Shown piece by piece: positions 2,758 through 64,000 of a DNA stretch of 64,000 bases; positions within the stretch are counted from its first letter, which is position 1; each line of letters starts with the position of its first letter. A program made the translations under genes and the position numbers. This stretch comes from Octopus vulgaris (taxonomy: Eukaryota). The notes beneath the pieces were generated by a model. The model was not told the DNA's origin and did not search any database. It saw nothing but the letters and a program-made list of their open reading frames with translations. The DNA is taken from assembly GCA_951406725.2 (NCBI GenBank), contig OX597826.1, positions 59,706,001 to 59,770,000 on the forward strand. The letters run 5' to 3'.

Positions 2758-4731
2758 TTTGTGTGTGTGTGTGTAAATCGCTACTTGCACCGTATCTAGA
2801 GGGGATATTTTCATATGTATTTTTAATATTGTTAATACCTCTTGGCAGGTCTCACGTAAAATATACTCATAGCTACAGTGTGCGTCGTAAGAGAATGACA
2901 TCACCCATTTTAGCGTGACAGTGTATGCACCACTCTTGGTTCATTGGTGCAGAGAGAGAATTCGGAGCCTTCAATAATTCATCATGTTGTGTCTCATCAG
3001 AGCTTTGAGCCTAAACCATTTGTTTATACTCTTAGGGATCAAATTGGTTGCCGATCGGTACTTATGCTTGCCAACGAATAAAAATTCGTTATTTACGACA
3101 TTTACAACGAGATGTGGAAAGAATATTAGCATATTTACTATCAATATGTCTTGGCAGGTGCAAACACAATACATATATATCAATGTTCCGCTTTTGCATA
3201 GCGTTACTATTAAGCTGGTGTTAGAATTAAGCATACATATGATTCGGAATAAAGCGAAAGTTGTGTAGAGAGCGTGATATGAAATTAAATAAATGACAAA
3301 AGGAAAGGGGAATCATGCAATGAAATTAATATTTTTACAGCTCTTTCAGCAAGATGTAGTGTTCTACACTCTAAGTACACTTCATATAGAGCAGAAACAG
3401 CCGTAAGCTAATGAAGGGTATTGCATAATTTTCTGTCCCTTTGTCATTTGTGTAATTTCAAATATATATATATATGTATGTATATGTATATGCTCGTATA
3501 TATATACATGCATACATACTCTCTTGTTGAAGTCGAACGAGCAAGGAACAATTAAAGACAGAATACAACAGATGCCAGAATATCTCTTTCTTAGACACCA
3601 AAGTGACAACAGTCTACCGTTGTGGGTTATATTTACCGTTCGTCTTGAAAATCTAAGAATGGTACCGAACAAGGCAAAAACACGAATAAAACATGAGTAA
3701 ACCATTATCCCCCTCTGAGAAATTCGAACACAATCCCCGTCTTTTACCCCATATATTTAGTTTATCATTTAATATATATTCCAGTGTATTTGGCATCTCT
3801 TAAGAAATCAGGACGTATTTTGAGATAAAGATGGTAAACAATCACATCTTTTACAGTCCCATCGCGTATCCACGAAGAAGCTGCATAACCGATTTCTGAA
3901 TACTCTCACTGAAAGCTAACCGGCATTCCTACAATGTCTCAATAAGACTCAATGATGTAAAAATTCCTCCACCTCTTCTTCTCCCGCTCTTATTTCTTTC
4001 ACAACCAAACTACCAATACTAAAACCTCTGCCGTCTTTTCATAGGCTCTCAGACATACGCTCTTGTGTAGTTTTCCTTATTTACGTTAAGTTTATTGTAT
4101 TCTGTACAGCTTGAAGCGAATTTGAAAACCGTATAGAAAACAACGAAAGTAAATAGTTTCATACACCCTGTCGAATGTTTACAGTTGAAAGCAGCAAACG
4201 CCGGTTTTCTTTAGTATTATATTAATTGAGCAAAAACACCAGCAAATATCATACATTGTTCGTTGAAAGCTGTAGATGTCACATGAGCGAAATTTTAAAT
4301 TCACCGTCTCGTTTAGCGCTGTGTTCGCCTGTCAAAATTTTTGTTGAAGAACAGCAGAACGGAAATTATGTTACAATCATGCAACTAGCAGAGTTCTTCC
4401 TAAGTATCTCTGCCAAAAGGCTAAAAGCAACGACAAATTGGTGGCTTGGATACCAAATGTTGCTGTTTTGTTTTTCTTTAGTGAGTTCTTCATAAAAATT
4501 TCTATAAGTTGATAAATGGAATAGAAACAAGAATTTGTATGTGTGTACTTGCACAAGCTTACATATGCAAGATATGCATATACAGCCACACTCACACACA
4601 GAAACACACTTATATACTTATATCTGTTTGTATTTGTACATACACGATACACACAGAGGCCTAAATCTGTTTATATATGTATGTATATATATTGTTTATC
4701 TTCGTCTTTTGTTTTTCTTTAGGTTTCAACT

Positions 4732-36517: not shown

Positions 36518-36578
<61 letters not shown>

Positions 36579-36579
<1 letters not shown>

Positions 36580-36687
36580 CAATTAAGGAACGGCCATAAT
36601 AGGCCATTCACCCACTAGAAATAACAGCCAAAGCTTCTACCGCAAATAAAGATTAATTCCGTAAACAGGAGATTAATTCCGTAAACA
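36579..36687 (-). mobile_element. Truncated copy of the 491-bp HHR unit family
   Basis: ACAATTAAGGAACGGCCATAATAGGCCATTCACCCACTAGAAATAACAGCCAAAGCTT..ATTAATTCCGTAAAC matches 62751-62845; inside (TA)n. Confidence 0.85.
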
Positions 36688-53585: not shown

Positions 53586-54020
53586 ATTCTTTTACTGGTT
53601 TCAGTCATTTCACTGCAGCCATGCTGGAGCACCGCCTATAGTCGAACAAATCAACGCCAGGACTTATTCTTTGTAAGCCTAGTACTTATTCTATCGGTCT
53701 CTTTTACAGAAATGCTAGGTTACCGGGACATAAACACACCAACATCGGTTGGCAAGCAATGGTAGGATGACAAACACAGACACACACATAAATATATATA
53801 TATACATACATACACTAATACATATATATATATGAATATATATACGACGGGCTTCTTTCAGTTCCGTCTACTAAATCCACAAGGGTTTGGTCGGCCCGAG
53901 GCTATAGTAGAAGATGCTTACCCAAAGTGCCACGCAGTGGGACTGAACCCGCAACCATGTGGTTGGGAAGCACGCTAAGCATTTCGCCTGGTGTGCTAAC
54001 GTTTCTGCCAGCTCGCCTTA
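53586..54020 (-). mobile_element. SINE group A body fused to a group B head
   Basis: Group A sequence to ~53971, then GCTAAGCATTTCGCCTGGTGTGCTAACGTTTCTGCCAGCTCGCC. Confidence 0.75.
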
Positions 54021-55367
54021 AACCCAGAGTAAGATAATAACCAACTGCATGCAAAACCAATGATAAATTTAGAGAAATAGATAATCTACTGACTGAACTC
54101 ACCACTATAAGGTCAACACAAAAGAACCAAAGAAGAAAGTTCTACTTTGTTTCCTACCCACTACAAAAAGATGCCAAATCCTCTAAACAACTACCGTGTT
54201 ATAAAAAGCGATGGTGATCAAATTTATTCTAGTGATTCAAGCAAATAGGATAGTGAGAATCGCATTATGCTTGATGATTTTTTCGTTCAACTAGAGATTA
54301 AGTCACTCTAAAAAACGTCAACATCAAGGACATATGTAGACATACAAAGTGGAGAGTGAAGAGAGTACAATATTGCCAGACTTTCACACTATGACCATAC
54401 CATTCATCGCTATATATCAGAGAGTTCAGTACAGTTGTGATTTAGAGCGACAGTATACTTGAGTAACAGTATAGCTAGGATGAAATAGGATAAGACGAAC
54501 GACAAACCTACAAATGGTACTTAAACAGCCCCCATTTCACTACCTGCCAAGAGACTGTAGTATAAGAGAGCAGATTTAGAACCACAAATAGTCATCAAAC
54601 GCGCCAGAAACACCTGATATTTGATTGATTGTCTTTTGCGATGCCCAAAAAAGTGCTATTTTTATGTCTAGATATTCCGTTCATTTTTCATTTTCGTATA
54701 TCTACAGATACATAATGTTCATAACGTTCAACCTCTTTAATCTCATCACCCTTGGAGGTCGAGTAAATAAATTGTCACTCTCACTTATATATCTAATTGA
54801 CTTCTACAGAGCTGTTTATGTTTCTAAAGATGCTGGAGAATACATTTTCTACAGACATTCCCACCATATAAGTTCGATACAGAATAGTGACTATGCTGAC
54901 CTTAGACTATTTTCAATAGAATATAAACATCTTGAACCCTGCTTCTCTTCTGCAATATCCAATAGCTTCTCATATCTCTCCAACGTTTTATTAAACGATA
55001 TAATAAATATACGCATTCGTTCTCTGTTTTTATTTTCTTTCGCTTCTTTATCGTCTCTGTTTCATCATGATTCTGCTTTTAGTTACATACATATGCAAAC
55101 CTTAATATACATGTACATGCATATATATACACACATACTTTCAGTGTTCTTTTTTTATTCAGCCATCTTTTGTTTTTGAACATATAGATGTTTGTTTACT
55201 TCTGTGTTTTCCATATACTTATATACATACATCGATCCATCCATCCATACACACACACATATACACACACACACGTATACATATACATACATATATTCAT
55301 ATATATGTATATATTTATATGTATATCCATATACATATATATACTTATTTGTATGTAGATAAAGACA

Positions 55368-55454
<87 letters not shown>

Positions 55455-55943
55455 GTGTGTGTGTGTGTATGTGTGTGTATAGATGCAAGTAGCATTTTCA
55501 TGGATGTGCACATGAATATATTCGTATGGGTGAGTGTATGCGAGCGTGTCTGCCGAGAGAACATTATCAATATTCTATAGTAAATATCATTCGCAAGATC
55601 ACAGAATGAGATAACATCTGATCTTTAACAAGAAACTACGATGATATAAATTAAACATGATATCGAGCGATCATATTCAGAGATAGCACTATGATGCGCT
55701 TTTGTTTATAGTTCTTGTTGTTGCTGGTTGTATTTGTATTATTGCTGTAATAGTGGCCTGGGGCTATAGCAAGTGGTAATCTTGTGTCATTGTCAGCCAA
55801 AGGCAGCATCAATTCGATCAATTGCTTAAGCAATTTCAATATTCTTACATCACTACAGATGTTGATGAGGATGCGTGTGCCTTATTGCTTATTTTAAACG
55901 GGTGAAACGTTCTTAAATTGACGAGTAATGTCGTTGATCAAAT

Positions 55944-56305
55944 ATTTCTACTTGTACTTGTGGCGACATTCACCCTGGTTGCGTTGAGTCGGCTTCTTCT
56001 ACCACCCTCGAGGCATCTCGAACCATGGAAGCCCACACAAGACGGTCCTGCGCTAGTTCACTGTAGATAGCGAGCCAGTCACGGTTCCATCGGCGCAGGC
56101 CGACCACCTACGGACCCGTGAGCACGAAGATGTCATCCTTGATCGTCGTAGCCCAGGTCTTCAGCTGCCCGCTCGCGCGTTTCCGCCAATTGGGAAATGG
56201 AGTTGGGAGAAGTACATCACGGCTCAGTTCACCCACCGGACGCCTACATGCATGGCCAAACCACCGCAAGCGCCGTTCCATGAATTCTCAATGGCGAATA
56301 CAATG
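55944..56305 (-). mobile_element. 5'-truncated RTE-clade LINE with 11-bp target-site duplication
   Basis: RRLRWFGHACRRP..WRKRASGQLKTWATTIKDD..GP*VVGLRRWNRDW..LAQDRLVWASMVRDA; CAAGTA x2 tail; GTTGATCAAAT at 55933-55943 and 56306-56316. Confidence 0.85.
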
Positions 56306-56396
56306 GTTGATCAAATGCCATGTGAAATAACATATTTGAGAGACTATCGCCATATCTATGTGAATATTATATCGCATCATCTTACGGAAGTTGAAA

Positions 56397-56909
56397 TCTA
56401 TATATATAAAACTGTAGTTGTGTGAGTGTCTGTCCCCTTCGATTTAGATTCCTAACTCCTCCCACATTTTGCGGTGCACTTTAACCAAATTCGGGTATCT
56501 TATAGTCGTGATTCATATCAAGCCCGTCTGAGTATTAGCGCGCGTCTACGATGAGTCTACGATTTTAAAAATAATTTAACATCATTTTTTATTCCATTTT
56601 AATGCATAATTTTTCGTGTGTCGATGGCGGTGGAGTTGGCGTCCACGGTCACACCTGCACCTGTTTGCTTCTCCCCCTTCTTCCCTCCCTCGTGAAGCTG
56701 TGGGGAAGGGAGTGTAAGGAAATCAACGTCGTAAAGCGTTGTCAAGGAGACCAGCGTTCTTTTAGAACAACGACTTCATGGCTTGAATACACCAAAACAG
56801 AAATGGCTAAGAAAGGCCGAATTGGCATCTATAAGGGAAGTAACTCTCTAAAAATGCTTATATAGTTATTTCCCTTACAAACCCGAGCAACGCCGGGCGA
56901 TACTGCTAG
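56397..56909 (+). mobile_element. Non-autonomous Helitron
   Basis: 5' TCTATATATATAAAA, 3' hairpin CCCGAGCAACGCCGGG followed by CTAG; inserted between A and T with no TSD. Confidence 0.85.
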
Positions 56910-58632
56910 TATGTTTATAAATCTTTACTCACCACTAAAATAATTTTTAAAATTAGTTGAAGATTATTGAAGGTTAGTGTTTTCCATAGCGAGCGAAAAG
57001 TGATCGGAGTGCGATACTTAGAAGATCGAAGTGTAATACTCTTGCACCATTAAATACATTTCTGGTGTTAAAAAGATTCCAGTTTCCTTTCTTCTTTTCC
57101 GTTATAGTCCTCTCCGTCGCGCCACATCCCTTAATTTACACTACTTAAAAAATTTTTTGTATATTACAAAGATTTTACGTCACCTAATGGGAAACATTTT
57201 CTGCACAAATTGAAAAAGATTCTGTAGAGATCATAGACTGGGAGCATTGGCAAAACGACCTAAGAAGATTCGAAACCTATACTTATTGCTTGCTGCGGTA
57301 ATATAGGATTCACTCAATACGACTACAGCATTCTATGATTAAAATTAAATAACACGATAGACAAAGGAGTAGCATGAAAAATAGCAACGTTTTGATTATT
57401 GCCTGGAAATGAATTACATTTTTGGAAACGTTTTATTGGAGGTTAACATTGAGCTCTCGCAGATGTGACAACCCCTTAGCGAAACTATTGTAATATTAAT
57501 TGCTTAAAGAATCTAACAAATAAATATAAGAAAGGATGTCGAAAGAAAGTGAATGATAGAAAAGATAAAGACTCACGAAGGAAAACAATTTATAAAATAT
57601 ATGAAAGACTTAAAGTCGAAAAAATCAATCTATATGAAAATAAGAAATATAAAAATATAAAGGAAAAACCTCTAGATTATTACCCCGCCTCCGAGGAAAA
57701 ACAGCTAAGAAAATAAAACAACGATCATAATGTTATAATTTGACATTTAAGCAATTAAATACGAAATTAGTATTTCGCAAAGGAAATGGAATTGCTTTGA
57801 GTCAGAGATGGTAGATGATTTAGGAAGTAAAATTTAGTAGCTTTAAATAGAAAATGAACTTTTGGCATATTGACATTCTTATAATGAACTCTACATCAAA
57901 CGTGGAAGTTCATGAAATACTCGGTAGCAATGATAAATCTGAAATGAATCAGGGGAAAATATATTAAATCGGTTCTGAGATATTTTATTTTAATAAGCCA
58001 GTAATATTATTTTCTTGAGGAAAAAAAATTTGAAATTTAAATTGAAGATCAAGATGACGTTAATTCATTCTAATTTTGGAACTTGTCCAGAAGACCCCCG
58101 AGCTGCTTGACTGGTACTTAAATGAATGACCCCAAAATGATGGAAAGCAAAGTTGATTTCGGCGGTATGTGTACCCAGAGCTATAAGAAAGGATGCGTGG
58201 TATTTGATCGATATGAAAAACATAAACCAAGTGAAGTAAGAAGACATACACATAAATAAAAAATATAGGAATATAGATAAGGATAGAGATGCAACTACGG
58301 CAACCTGTGTTTAAAAATAAATATCATGTCAGACAAATATGTGGAAGAAATGTAATTTTTGTTTTGATTATTGCTGGTAAATTAGTTACAAGAAGTTTGG
58401 AAATATTTTATCAGGAGTGTGGATCAACTTTGAGCCCAGCCATACACGAGCTCCGATCAAACTGTGCGAAAATTTGGGCCAGTATTCTTTAATATAGCCG
58501 CAACTATCGCCAATGAATTGTCAGTGAATTTTGATTAATGGAAACTGCGTGAAGGCGTTCGCACTTTTATATATTGAAGTTAGTGTGAATACGTGTGTGT
58601 GTGCGAGAGAAAGTGTGTGCGTGCATATTTGT

Positions 58633-58663
<31 letters not shown>

Positions 58664-58843
58664 TGTGTTCATGTACACAAATGTGCGTCTGTGTATTTTT
58701 TGTTTATGATTGTGACGGAACCGCTATGCTACCATGACTGATGTGTCTACGAACTATACTGTCTCAACAAAACATATCGATAGAATAATTACCAGATTTA
58801 AGATAATTAATAGAGTCGATTTGTTCAGTTATCACTAAAAACC

Positions 58844-59164
58844 CAGTCGTTCTCAACCGGGGCCCGCATAACACATGAGGTCCATATAAAACTTTTGGAG
58901 TCCACGAAGCAAAACATTAAAATGGGGAACCACCGTACTATATAAAAGACCCTTAAAGAAATTTGTTTAGACGTCTTTATTGCAAGAACCAATTACGTTT
59001 CTTTCAGAAACGTTTTACATAATTTGAGCTACACACGTTCAGGTGTGAAAAGACAATAGGAATTCTAAAAGATGTATGCATAAACTAGTTTATAAGGGTT
59101 ATAGGGGTCCACCAGACTTAAACAACATTAAAGGGTTCATAAGTAAAATATTTCAGAACCACTG
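58844..59164. mobile_element. hAT-like MITE
   Basis: Ends CAGTCGTTCTCAA / TTCAGAACCACTG; internal GG(A/G)GTCCA subterminal motifs. Confidence 0.6.
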
Positions 59165-59263
59165 CTATGAACGGAGAAACAGCAATGGCAGTAGCAAACC
59201 CACTGGCTAATAGATTTAAACCAATAAAAAGTTTTAGTAGATTGTAGATTGTTATGTAGATAC

Positions 59264-59347
<84 letters not shown>

Positions 59348-59361
59348 TTTTCTTTCATTCT

Positions 59362-59409
<48 letters not shown>

Positions 59410-59601
59410 ACACACACACACACACACATATGCGTTTATATATGTATAGTGCTACGTTGGCTTCACTGATTTTCGATCTGACCGGCATTCGGAGTTTGGA
59501 TTTCTATTGCCGATTATGCGAAATACGGTGAAATCACGTGATACAACAGTGATGTTCGCTGGTCTTGACAGAATATCGACAACCGATGTGGTGTGTTTGA
59601 G

Positions 59602-59672
<71 letters not shown>

Positions 59673-60181
59673 AGAGAGAAAGCGAGAGAGAGAGATTGGT
59701 CGCTAGATATATGTATATGCATATATATGTAGGCGTATGTATATATAAATATGTATTATATGTACGCATATGTATGTATATATATGTACATACATACATG
59801 CGTACATACATACATGCATACATATATATATATATAGAGAAATTATATATTTATTTATACATATATGTACATATATATAAACTTATATATATATACATGT
59901 ATAAATACACATATATGTATGCACACATACACACACACTCACATATATATGAAATATCTTTATATTTATGTTACCACGTCTGTATAGATGTATAACAGAG
60001 ATTCTCGCTAGATATATGTATATACATATGTATAAACATGTATACATACGTCTGTGTATATATATGTCTGTGTATATATATGTCTGTGTATATATACACA
60101 TACACACACATGCACACACACACGCTCACATATATATATGAAATGTTTATATATTTATATACATATACATATATACACATT

Positions 60182-60271
<90 letters not shown>

Positions 60272-61366
60272 ACTACGTCTGTATATATGTATGTCTGTAT
60301 GTATGTACTTATGTGTATATGCTAATAGTGAAACGGATTCAAAGATAAACAGAAAACACCGATCAAGTCAGAATTGAACAGACATTCAAACATTAAAACA
60401 AACATGTCGGACAATAAATTATAAAGAAAGAAAGAATGAAAGAAAAGGAAGAAGAAAGAAGAAAAGAAAGAACGGATCTGTGAATACTATAAAACATTTA
60501 AAAACAAATATTGAACAGAGAGAAACGAGAATCGAATAAAACTATATAGAGAGTGCTATGAAGTAGCTTAATATACAAGCAGTTATTTAGTTACGTTTCA
60601 AGTGTCAAAGGAGCAATATATCACATGTAGTCAATATTGTCGATGATGGTGGTTATGGTGGTAGAGGTAGTGGTTATGGCGTCAGAGATTATGCTGCTAA
60701 TGGCGGTGGAGGTTGTTGTAAAGGCTAGGCAGAGACGAAGGTTGTGGATGTGAATTTGTTTTAGGAAAGAAGGGCGGGAATTATAATGCGAAAATGAAAA
60801 TGAAAATGAAAATAGAAAAGGAAAAATGGAAAGAAATAAAAGGAAAACAAACGAATATGAAATAAACCAAACTCCAACGAATGCATGAATTGGCTAATAA
60901 ATATATAAACATATAAGAGAGATATAACAAACATATAGAATAGCATAGAATAGAATAGAAATGCGTAGATGGTAGGAATGAATATAAATGGGAAAAATTA
61001 ACGAAAGAAATAGTGAAGAAGGCAATTCATTTTACATTGTGGATATTGAAACTGGCAGTTTAATTGTTGATTTGATATGTTTATCAAATTTATCAAATTA
61101 GAGTGAAAATTATATATTACGTACGACAGAAGGTTAACTTTACAATGCTCCGCAAACTAAGATTTAATTCTTTACAGAGGTTGTTTCATTATTATTATTA
61201 ATATTTTCGTCTTTATGTGTTTATTTAATTATTTCCTTTTCTTTATTATTTTTTTTGTTCCTGGTAGTATTGTCATACATTTTTTTTGCCTTCAATCAAA
61301 CGAAATAAATAGTTTGAACTTAATATATGATACGAAAGATAATATGGATGATACAAAGGATGTTGA

Positions 61367-61708
61367 CGATGATGATGATGATGATGATGATGATGAGGAT
61401 GATGATGGAATCGCGAATGTTTTTTTATATTCTTCTTCTTCATCATCATCATCATTATCACCATCATTGTTTTTACTGTCTTCGTTGTTTTTGTTTCTCG
61501 TGTCGCTATTGTTACGGTTGCTGTTGTTTTTGTTGTTGCACTTCTCCTCCTCCTCCTCCTCCCCCTATTCTTCCTCTTCCTCCTCCTCCCCTCTTTTTAT
61601 CTTCCTTCACTTCCTCATCCTCTTCCCCTCTTTTTGTTCTTCCTCCACTTCCTCCTCCGCCTCCTCCTCCTTCACCTTCCTCTTCTTCTTCTTCTTCTTC
61701 TTCTTCTT

Positions 61709-61770
<62 letters not shown>
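61367..61770. repeat. Compound GAT/TCA/CCT/TTC/TTA microsatellites
   Basis: Direct reading. Confidence 0.9.
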
Positions 61771-61996
61771 TTTTTTTTTCTTCTTTCAAATTTTCTTCTA
61801 TTTCTTGCCGAGTGTCTTCCCGACTCCTAGGGCAAAGAAACTCATAGTGTATATTGGTAGGCCATTAAACCAAACTCAGTAGTTCGTTCATTTTTTTTTT
61901 TTTTTAAGTTAAATTAAAATGCATGAGCAGCAACAGTTCTCACATCGACAATGCTCTTCTCAATACGTGTGATGTACCAGTTAAGACATATTATTA

Positions 61997-62070
<74 letters not shown>

Positions 62071-62870
62071 ATATGATGTTGCTCGTAACCGATGCTGGAA
62101 CTTAGTGATTGTGGATTTGATGTTGGCTCTTTTTGTGTAGTTGGTAATGGCCGTGATTTTAGTTGTGTTGGTGATATTCGCAGTGTTATTACTGGTGTTA
62201 TCTTCTTTGGAACGATGCTGTTCAAAATTATGAGTAACAGGGTTGATGTGATTGACAACGTTGGGGATAATGACATTTATTATTATAGCGAGGTCAATGT
62301 GAACGATAGCAATGTTAATTACAAGGTCGAAAAAATGCGGAGAAAGCCAAGTGTAATGATGTTCGTGAGATAGATGTTAACGCAGGGTAAAGTGAAAAAT
62401 ATAAATATGATGGAATGATAACCAACAGTTGGTAAAACTTAAGAATTACGAATTTTGTATTTAAATATGTTTTGTTCGGTGAGCTGCAAACTGGGTGCAT
62501 CATTATTATTTTATTCTTGTATTATTTTATTTGTTTCAGTCATTTGACTGCGGCCATGCTGGAGCACCGCCTTTAGTCGAGCAAATCGATCCCAGGACTT
62601 CTTCTTTGTAAGCCTAGTACTTATTCTATCGGTCTTTCTTGCCGAACCGCTATGTTACGGGGACGTAAACACACCAGCCAGCATCGGTTGTCAAGCGATG
62701 CTGGGGTACAAACACAGGCACAGAAACATATATATATATATATATATTTCACAATCAAGGAACGGCCATAATAGGCCATTCACCCACTAGAAATAACAGC
62801 CAAAGCTTTAACCGCAAAATAACATTAATTCCGTAAACCAGGAGAAAATTAAAAAAACATTTACCCTGTA

Positions 62871-62977
62871 ATTTCTTATACGATGCACCGTTTCATCTAC
62901 TGTTTAATGGTAAACTAACCTGATTAAATTAAATCAAGCCAATCTTCCATAGGCCCTTAGATTCCTCAGTAAGAAAT
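62871..62977 (-). ncRNA. Type I hammerhead ribozyme (left-arm copy)
   Basis: Reverse complement of 63448-63554. Confidence 0.8.
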
Positions 62978-63447
62978 AGCCAGAACGGAACAGATATTTT
63001 CACGAGGCATTTCCGTCCCTGCCTCGGCAATATCTGACCTAAAATTTTCAAATCATCGCACTCGCGCCAAATTTATCGGCAGCAAATAAATATAAGCCGC
63101 CGATTCCATTACGGAATCAACCAGAAAATTCATAATTAATCAATATAGGGTGGCAAAAAAAAATTTTGTAGAATTTTTTTGCCACCAGCGGCCTAGTGGG
63201 AAAAAATTAAATAGTCATAGACCATTTATAAGTTCAACTTCACAATCAAAATTCTACAAAAATTTTTTTTGCCACCCTATATTGATTAATTATGAATTTT
63301 CTGGTTGATTCCGTAATGGAATCGGCGGCTTATATTTATTTGCTGCCGATAAATTTGGCGCGAGTGCGATGATTTGAAAATTTTAGGTCAGATATTGCCG
63401 AGGCAGGGACGGAAATGCCTCGTTAAAATATCTGTTCCGTTCTGGCT

Positions 63448-63554
63448 ATTTCTTACTGAGGAATCTAAGGGCCTATGGAAGATTGGCTTGATTTAATTTA
63501 ATCAGGTTAGTTTACCATTAAACAGTAGATGAAACGGTGCATCGTATAAGAAAT
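63448..63554 (+). ncRNA. Type I hammerhead ribozyme with enlarged stem II
   Basis: ATTTCTTA CTGAGGA ATCTA-[58 nt]-TAGAT GAAAC-GGTGCATC-GTA TAAGAAAT: 8-bp stem I, canonical core, predicted cleavage after GUA at 63546. Confidence 0.8.
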
Positions 63555-63784
63555 TACAGGGTAAATGTTTTTTTAATTTTCTCCTGGTTTACGGAATTAA
63601 TGTTATTTTGCGGTTAAAGCTTTGGCTGTTATTTCTAGTGGGTGAATGGCCTATTATGGCCGTTCCTTGATTGTGAAGTTGAACTTATAAATGGTCTATG
63701 ACTATTTAATTTTTTCCCACTAGGCCGCTGGTGGCAAAAAAATTCTACAAAATTTTTTTTTTGCCACCCTATATTGATTAATTA

Positions 63785-63824
<40 letters not shown>

Positions 63825-64000
63825 TGTCTGTCTCTGTGTGTGTGTGTGTATTCATACGACGGGTTTCTTTCAGTTTCCCTCTACTAAATTCACTCACAAG
63901 TCTTTGGTCGGCCCGTGGTTATAGTAGAAGACACTTGCCTAAGGTGACACGCAGTGAGACTGAACCTGGAACCATGTGGTTGGTAAGCAAGCTGCTTACC

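Follow-up and report, generated by a model that had tools for sequence, protein, structure and literature searches.

Octopus vulgaris copies of a candidate non-LTR retrozyme share the insertion anatomy of Penelope-like elements

How did two nearly identical copies of a short non-coding sequence come to stand head to head inside a (TA)n run at positions 62748-63789 of the window, the whole 64,000-nt stretch of Octopus vulgaris DNA analysed here? The original prediction described an ORF-less unit of 491 bp, captured as a left arm of one unit plus 11 bp and a right arm of one unit plus about 50 bp, and these lengths were borne out (Table 1). As the unit (U, 491 nt) we took 62748-63238 read in reverse complement, which places the end of U at the left outer end of the locus. 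It has a GC content of 36% and no ORF, the longest ATG-initiated frame in the concatemer being 26 aa. The right arm reads U62-491 followed by U1-111, and the left arm ends 11 nt beyond one full round. The arms were said to differ by about one substitution and by homopolymer lengths; among the 430 positions of U62-491 they indeed mismatch at two (a genuine substitution and a shifted boundary of an A/T run), and the second copy of U1-111 carries one additional T. Both outer ends adjoin (TA)n, as claimed. A rare A at U491, seen in 4 of 63 loci of the family, is present at both inner junctions of this locus. The original prediction took the surrounding repeat for a SINE. The two flanks are halves of one host repeat, for which no tRNA was called; elsewhere, 33 of 57 copies of its left half have the right half at most 250 bp downstream. 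The second, older copy of U in the window carries a 15-nt slipped duplicate at its 5' end (36575-36687).

Table 1. Features of the window, with positions counted from its first letter
Feature	Positions	Strand	Remarks
Left arm	62748..63249	-	502 nt = 491 + 11; 3' end 62748 = fixed site A
Right arm	63248..63789	+	542 nt = 491 + 51; 3' end 63785-63789 = fixed site B
Tail	63678..63789	+	107-111 nt separating site A from site B; confined to one outer end
Head-to-head junction of both 5' ends	63248..63249	.	2 nt common to both arms
(TA)n target, left side	62728..62747	.	
(TA)n target, right side	63790..63821	.	
Host repeat, left half	62521..62727	+	abundant; insertion in its inner microsatellite
Host repeat, right half	63841..64000	+	extends past the window edge
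Type I hammerhead motif, right arm	63448..63554	+	predicted cut after 63546; from sequence and constrained fold
Hammerhead motif, left arm	62871..62977	-	predicted cut at 62879
GGTGGC..GCCACC hairpin in the tail	63730..63768	+	left-arm copy 63149-63186; retained in older subfamilies
Interrupted hairpin 5' of the hammerhead	63389..63434	+	
Second, older unit copy, 5'-truncated	36575..36672	-	~92% identity; ends at site A; (TA)n on both sides

Each arm had been credited with one intact hammerhead ribozyme. The motif is present in each, and its orientation set the RNA sense of U, whereas Rfam scored neither copy: no hammerhead match was obtained over 54000-64000 (E up to 1) or over 63400-63620 (E up to 10), and the Rfam matches elsewhere in the searched stretch were microsatellites aligned with miRNA models and were discarded. 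The motif comprises a stem I of 8 pairs, the core CUGAGGA, a stem II of 5 pairs closing ~70 nt and followed by GAAA, a stem III of 3 pairs with a palindromic loop, and GUA at 63544-63546; the long stem II is probably why Rfam missed it. The active fold, when imposed as a constraint, was predicted to lie 1.4 kcal/mol above the best fold of the isolated motif, and in the modelled circle it would be a minor conformer, with pair probabilities of 0.04-0.15 for stem I, 0.35-0.39 for stem II and 0.07 for stem III. The 10.1-11.1 pair is A-U. The other hairpins named in the original prediction are present in the fold (z = -5.7 against 100 shuffles). Among 220 matches to the motif pattern across loci, variation was confined to the free core position 7 in 204, and about 13 of the remaining 16 were mis-anchored; compensated pairs were found in stem II in 10 of the 220 matches and in stem I in 5. 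Judging from these matches, the hammerhead is maintained by selection across the copies.

We searched the 2.8-Gb genome (227 contigs) for further copies. The unit gave 216 matches among the 40 best-scored of 1,428 candidates, and a 19-base word from the hammerhead occurred exactly 403 + 403 = 806 times, the control word not at all. Patterns combining an outer end with TA were found on the forward strand at 325 places for site A and 759 for site B; the reverse-strand counts were inflated by overlapping matches and the forward counts were used. Doubling these suggests well over a thousand insertions, older subfamilies counted in. Parts of the unit also occur in sequencing runs under four organism codes, none of them listed as RNA, and at least 90% of it was covered by contigs of four runs under three organism codes. 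These runs were guessed to be RNA, and such contig cover bears on presence alone, not on the ends, strand, level or circularity of a transcript.

The anatomy of the insertions was determined in 80 loci, namely the 40 best-scoring ones and 40 taken in order from the list of hammerhead-word occurrences, skipping those already taken; selection by score or by an intact hammerhead word favours long arms. Head-to-head arm pairs were present at 57 of the 80 loci. The remaining 23 scored as single arms, some with a second arm too short for scoring. Outer ends fell at site A (U484-491) or at site B (U100-113), ~107 nt further on, and the two were combined as follows: 50 of the 57 inverted loci paired A with B, none paired A with A or B with B, and seven had one odd end. 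Thus, in all 50 loci in which both ends could be classed, each site was used once. A TA run (at least 8 nt, within 24 nt of the end) lay near 127 of 130 A or B ends. The inner junctions varied in position, and the arms there either overlapped by a few bases or were separated by short inserts. The outer ends are therefore two fixed sites family-wide and only the inner junction varies. The varied permutations that had been envisaged thus gave way to two fixed start sites, each used once, the distance between them forming a tail of the kind known from Penelope-like elements (PLEs). The design is kept in older subfamilies (78-95% identity), A+B pairs being found in 5 of 10 additional loci with end B, mostly from such subfamilies, with 1.2 kb inspected for each.

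The window locus is typical of the family, with A terminating its left arm and B its right. Its arms had been thought to join in the A-run of the GGTGGC..GCCACC hairpin; this holds for the start of the right arm, whereas the 5' end of the left arm lies 11 nt before site A. The concern that the palindrome might be a fold-back or assembly artefact was not borne out, because the ends are asymmetric and the same design recurs at 50 loci, this one included.

Several loci depart from this design in detail. In 4 of 54 pairs (L042, L045, L137 and L215) both arms have the same 5' position, at the centre of a near-perfect fold-back, which suggests a second way of joining two cDNAs. L128 has an odd 3' end. 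Short unit words mixed with another sequence were seen in L112:1700-2560, L120:3620-3780 and L207:1005-1110; they have the look of filled and empty alleles blended by faulty polishing, in which case the insertions would be polymorphic, and the unit-like words in the L112 flank were likewise read as a polishing mixture. A different repeat, present at several loci (for example, L126:964-1213 and 2967-3216), ends in TA and has a motif resembling a type I hammerhead in which stem II is again long; it may represent another retrozyme or the end of a PLE.

We then considered the template. At least one hammerhead cut site was crossed by 119 of 132 arms and at least two by 58; 90 of the 132 exceed one unit, the longest reaching 3,767 nt, or 7.7 units. 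No arm started within 5-6 nt of the cut site (3.2 expected), an apparent case in L216 being an alignment overhang into AT filler. Thus, a cut linear monomer was not the template. Units diverge by 0.64% within an arm, 0.47% between the arms of a locus and 2.8% between loci, and 114 of 156 full units had their closest match, alone or tied, within their own locus. Rare variants, defined as those seen in at most 2 of the 80 loci, amounted to 225 cases in multi-unit loci: 32 were shared by all units covering the position (15 of these spanned the two arms, and 23 involved at least three units), 23 were shared by part of the units and 170 were confined to a single one. Fixed rare variants in long arrays imply a bottleneck of one unit followed by re-amplification, most simply a circle copied repeatedly, and the many singletons imply that homogenising in place is slow. 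The 5' ends of both arm types are enriched at site A (23 of 149 within 32 nt versus 9.7 expected; scan p 0.01, for a cluster spotted in the data before the scan test), a pile-up that a bound primer or enzyme would cause. Two arrays, L070:2499-6253 and L039:2399-5808, are mosaics whose variants reappear in units that do not adjoin each other, as in L070 with a pattern like b-a-b-z-a-z-a-b. The mosaics imply mixed templates or later DNA exchange; like the 23 cases of variants in part of the units, they count against one monomer circle, which cannot give them.

Such insertions have precedents among PLEs, whose copies are described as partial tandems truncated at the 5' end, frequently accompanied by an inverted copy and by a tail of 30-40 bp at one end; those of the Hydra clade insert in (TA)n (PMC8557442). 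For a lizard PLE, the protein was shown to cleave AT-rich DNA and to extend both of its strands, reverse transcription starting at two inner RNA sites whose spacing equals the genomic tail (PMC11167929). The young, non-autonomous hammerhead unit, the link with PLEs, the TA targets, the twin priming and the copying beyond one unit that had been predicted for the window locus all agree with the genome-wide data. We hold with little reservation that the arms were laid down by PLE-type twin priming at two fixed sites. A good case can be made that the family is a non-LTR retrozyme residing in (TA)n, its two arms written by a PLE reverse transcriptase/GIY-YIG endonuclease on circular RNA; taken by itself, the circular template, favoured over a linear one though unproven, is reasonably probable. 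Tandem arrays would, with similar probability, be transcribed, cut at the hammerheads and ligated into 491-nt circles. A PLE enzyme would then prime both cut target strands on the circular unit RNA, one enzyme starting at A and one at B. Each would proceed round the circle for a variable length, after which microhomology would serve to join the cDNA ends. Against this reading stand the weak predicted fold, the A-U pair, the missing Rfam score, the mosaic arrays, the lack of sequence likeness between the unit and the sampled PLE ends, and the tail lengths of the unit and of the candidate enzyme's own family described below, which do not match (107 versus ~70 nt).

A protein fragment adjoining two unit loci led to this family, designated P. 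The 150 best-scored of its 22,160 candidate matches are nearly all 99% identical, and a 717-aa ORF was present in all four loci fetched (for example, L205:2573-4723). P has no Pfam match, and a PDB search with it gave none; its reverse transcriptase is 24% alike to that of a Pfam-positive PLE (E 2e-7), and a motif scan found RWK, DKT, CxCX5C, CxxC and CxH, with GxKF/Y absent, the combination described for Hydra PLEs (PMC8557442). By these features, P is a very young and very abundant autonomous PLE, assigned to the Hydra clade by motifs only. Its two 3' ends lie ~70 nt from each other, and in all 7 of the 7 inverted pairs that show both of them each arm has a different one; P too lies in (TA)n. 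P carries a variant hammerhead with the core CCGAAGA.

At one locus, L037, unit and P meet: a unit arm that terminates at B is joined head to head to a 198-nt piece of P (99.5% identity), which stops at the first of P's two sites. The joint bears a short slipped repeat, and TA flanks the pair at either outer end. L037 thereby preserves the A+B rule across two templates. It is a lead rather than proof, because it was the only such chimera among 26 single-arm loci examined, of which at least four others adjoin unrelated repeats by chance; rough arithmetic puts chance nesting at a few percent, so that it is possible. A genome search with the L037 junction returned unit matches only, because the words of P are too common. 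Other chimera candidates (L039, L060, L063, L066 and L126) had the end of another repeat as neighbour or the wrong orientation, and that in L108 was a short insertion in a TA run after a PLE. That P or a sister family mobilises the unit, recognising structure rather than sequence, seems to us slightly the better bet. As a more specific and tentative proposal, one dimer of a Hydra-clade enzyme could sit at the two sites of a single 491-nt circle, prime both strands and carry out rolling-circle reverse transcription in both directions, the circle being a structural mimic without kinship.

The original prediction had suggested a search for autonomous PLEs sharing the unit's ends, and none sharing them by sequence was found among the sampled PLEs. 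A GIY-YIG search of the genome returned a 781-aa PLE family and others. The unit, compared with nine stretches of eight PLE 3' regions (P included), scored nowhere above shuffles, in a PLE diversity that is part-sampled, and blastn against PLE ends returned nothing beyond nearby unit fragments. The candidates set aside for want of likeness to the unit were three PLE families with GIY-YIG or reverse transcriptase matches (the 781-aa family of L091-L100 and those of L102 and L108), the L112 family, P and three relatives of P. The young 781-aa family, with reverse transcriptase and GIY-YIG domains, is represented in L091-L100 by many intact copies, partial tandems and (TA)n ends, and has an atypical hammerhead-like motif near the 3' end and ~1.4 kb of conserved sequence 5' of the ORF. 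In L102:1821-4983, an inverted PLE has 766-bp arms that are 100% identical and both end at one site, unlike the unit and P.

The unit might, on this background, be the pseudo-LTR of an unsampled autonomous PLE, its arrays being truncated or derived copies. In Xenopus 24 of 57 retrozyme families match known elements, 21 of 22 being PLEs (Li, Clavereau and Pollet, bioRxiv 10.64898/2026.07.22.740005; hereafter the Li preprint), and the partial sampling of octopus PLEs leaves room for such a parent. We nevertheless consider this improbable: in none of 80 + 13 loci was a copy the terminus of a longer coding element, as the original prediction had also contemplated, and the 5' continuation of the unit was itself, TA or unrelated flanks, with no PLE ORF continuous with it. 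Derivation of the unit from a PLE end by sequence thus found no support among the sampled PLEs, in agreement with the comparison of 3' regions. The question concerns origin and would not change the mode of copying. A more radical departure, spread at the DNA level as a satellite or fold-back element, or an assembly artefact, would account for tandem units and for the resemblance of L112 and L120 to mis-polished mixtures. It is hardly credible in view of fixed asymmetric 3' ends opposite scattered 5' ends, strict A+B pairing, TA targeting, a coding PLE of equal design and the presence of the unit in runs under four organism codes.

The same PLE machinery, with its twin start sites, could instead have copied a linear multimer that an existing array had yielded on transcription and that was left uncut; template jumps or unequal crossing-over would then restore array length. 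The lizard PLE worked in vitro mainly on uncut RNA, and the ribozyme was dispensable (PMC11167929), the predicted ribozyme fold is weak, the mosaics of L039 and L070 are at home here, and the lack of stops at the cut site fits such a template as well as a circle. It would, conversely, leave the conserved hammerhead core with its compensated pairs to be explained, and where a rare variant is fixed throughout a long array and across its two arms, the one-unit bottleneck and subsequent re-amplification are still needed, alongside 170 of 225 singletons. On balance we rate the linear multimer as unlikely, although less so than a pseudo-LTR origin, and retain the circular template as the preferred reading.

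Neither the kind of element nor the circle model is novel: both are in print (PMC7229834, PMC4209133 and the Li preprint). Animal non-LTR retrozymes were defined, and copying of their circles to tandem cDNA by PLEs proposed, in PMC7229834; a circular-template model was proposed for PLEs themselves (PMC4209133); and the Li preprint links retrozymes to PLE pseudo-LTRs by sequence and reports cleavage of one of nine retrozyme dimers, a figure that weighs against the reading favoured here. PMC7229834 and the Li preprint treat as open both the identity of the enzyme that mobilises animal retrozymes and the use of circles as templates, and PMC8557442 calls the origin of PLE inverted ends and tails open. 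The value of the present family lies in its strict one-each rule, long tail, chimera and use as a test system. It makes exact, testable predictions, namely a pair of start sites that each serve one target strand, a circle of 491 nt and a (TA)n target, and an intact young candidate enzyme is present in the same genome. The unit and P could serve at once as substrate and enzyme in the PLE assay that PMC11167929 set up in vitro. If an enzyme dimer does work on a circle, the hundreds of genomic copies would for the first time provide a direct footprint linking an animal retrozyme with a named enzyme, and the inverted-plus-tail structure of PLEs would be explained. The copies likely record how RNA circles enter a genome.

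With metazoan non-LTR retrozymes the family shares short tandem units that are low in GC and encode no protein, each bearing a single type I hammerhead and no LTR features, in many dispersed arrays (here of up to 7.7 units); on every feature tested the unit is a non-LTR retrozyme, self-cleavage and circular RNA being predicted only. Its length of 491 nt compares with 170-400 in PMC7229834 and 51-972 in the Li preprint. In contrast to those retrozymes as described, it has inverted arms, fixed complementary start sites, a tail and (TA)n targets; its stem II holds ~70 nt, and no PLE pseudo-LTR of matching sequence was found among the sampled PLEs. Word searches of the main texts of PMC7229834 and the Li preprint returned no mention of inverted arms or tails (supplements may differ), and a literature search, with Repbase and Dfam outside its scope, returned no description of a 491-nt family or of inverted retrozyme arms. 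The element class is already known, and the PLE insertion anatomy was not found described for retrozymes.

Non-autonomous Chlamys elements such as MRC1 are likewise PLE partners with multicopy head-to-tail insertions, but their 3' ends are like those of the autonomous partners, and they belong to a group described as lacking canonical hammerheads (PMC8557442). Compared with endonuclease-bearing (EN+) PLEs as described, the unit is non-coding, its tail is 107 nt rather than 30-40, many full units stand in both arms and a strict one-each use of sites was counted (50 of 50); the 5'-truncated partial tandems, the inverted copy on the 5' side, the tail equal to the spacing of reverse transcription starts and the AT-rich targets are the same. 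Hydra-clade PLEs and P lack sequence likeness to the unit, and P has a tail of ~70 nt, whereas insertion in (TA)n, a hammerhead near the 3' end, the A+B rule, young age and the joint insertion at L037 unite them with it. By this analysis, the family would work like a PLE insertion made from retrozyme RNA.
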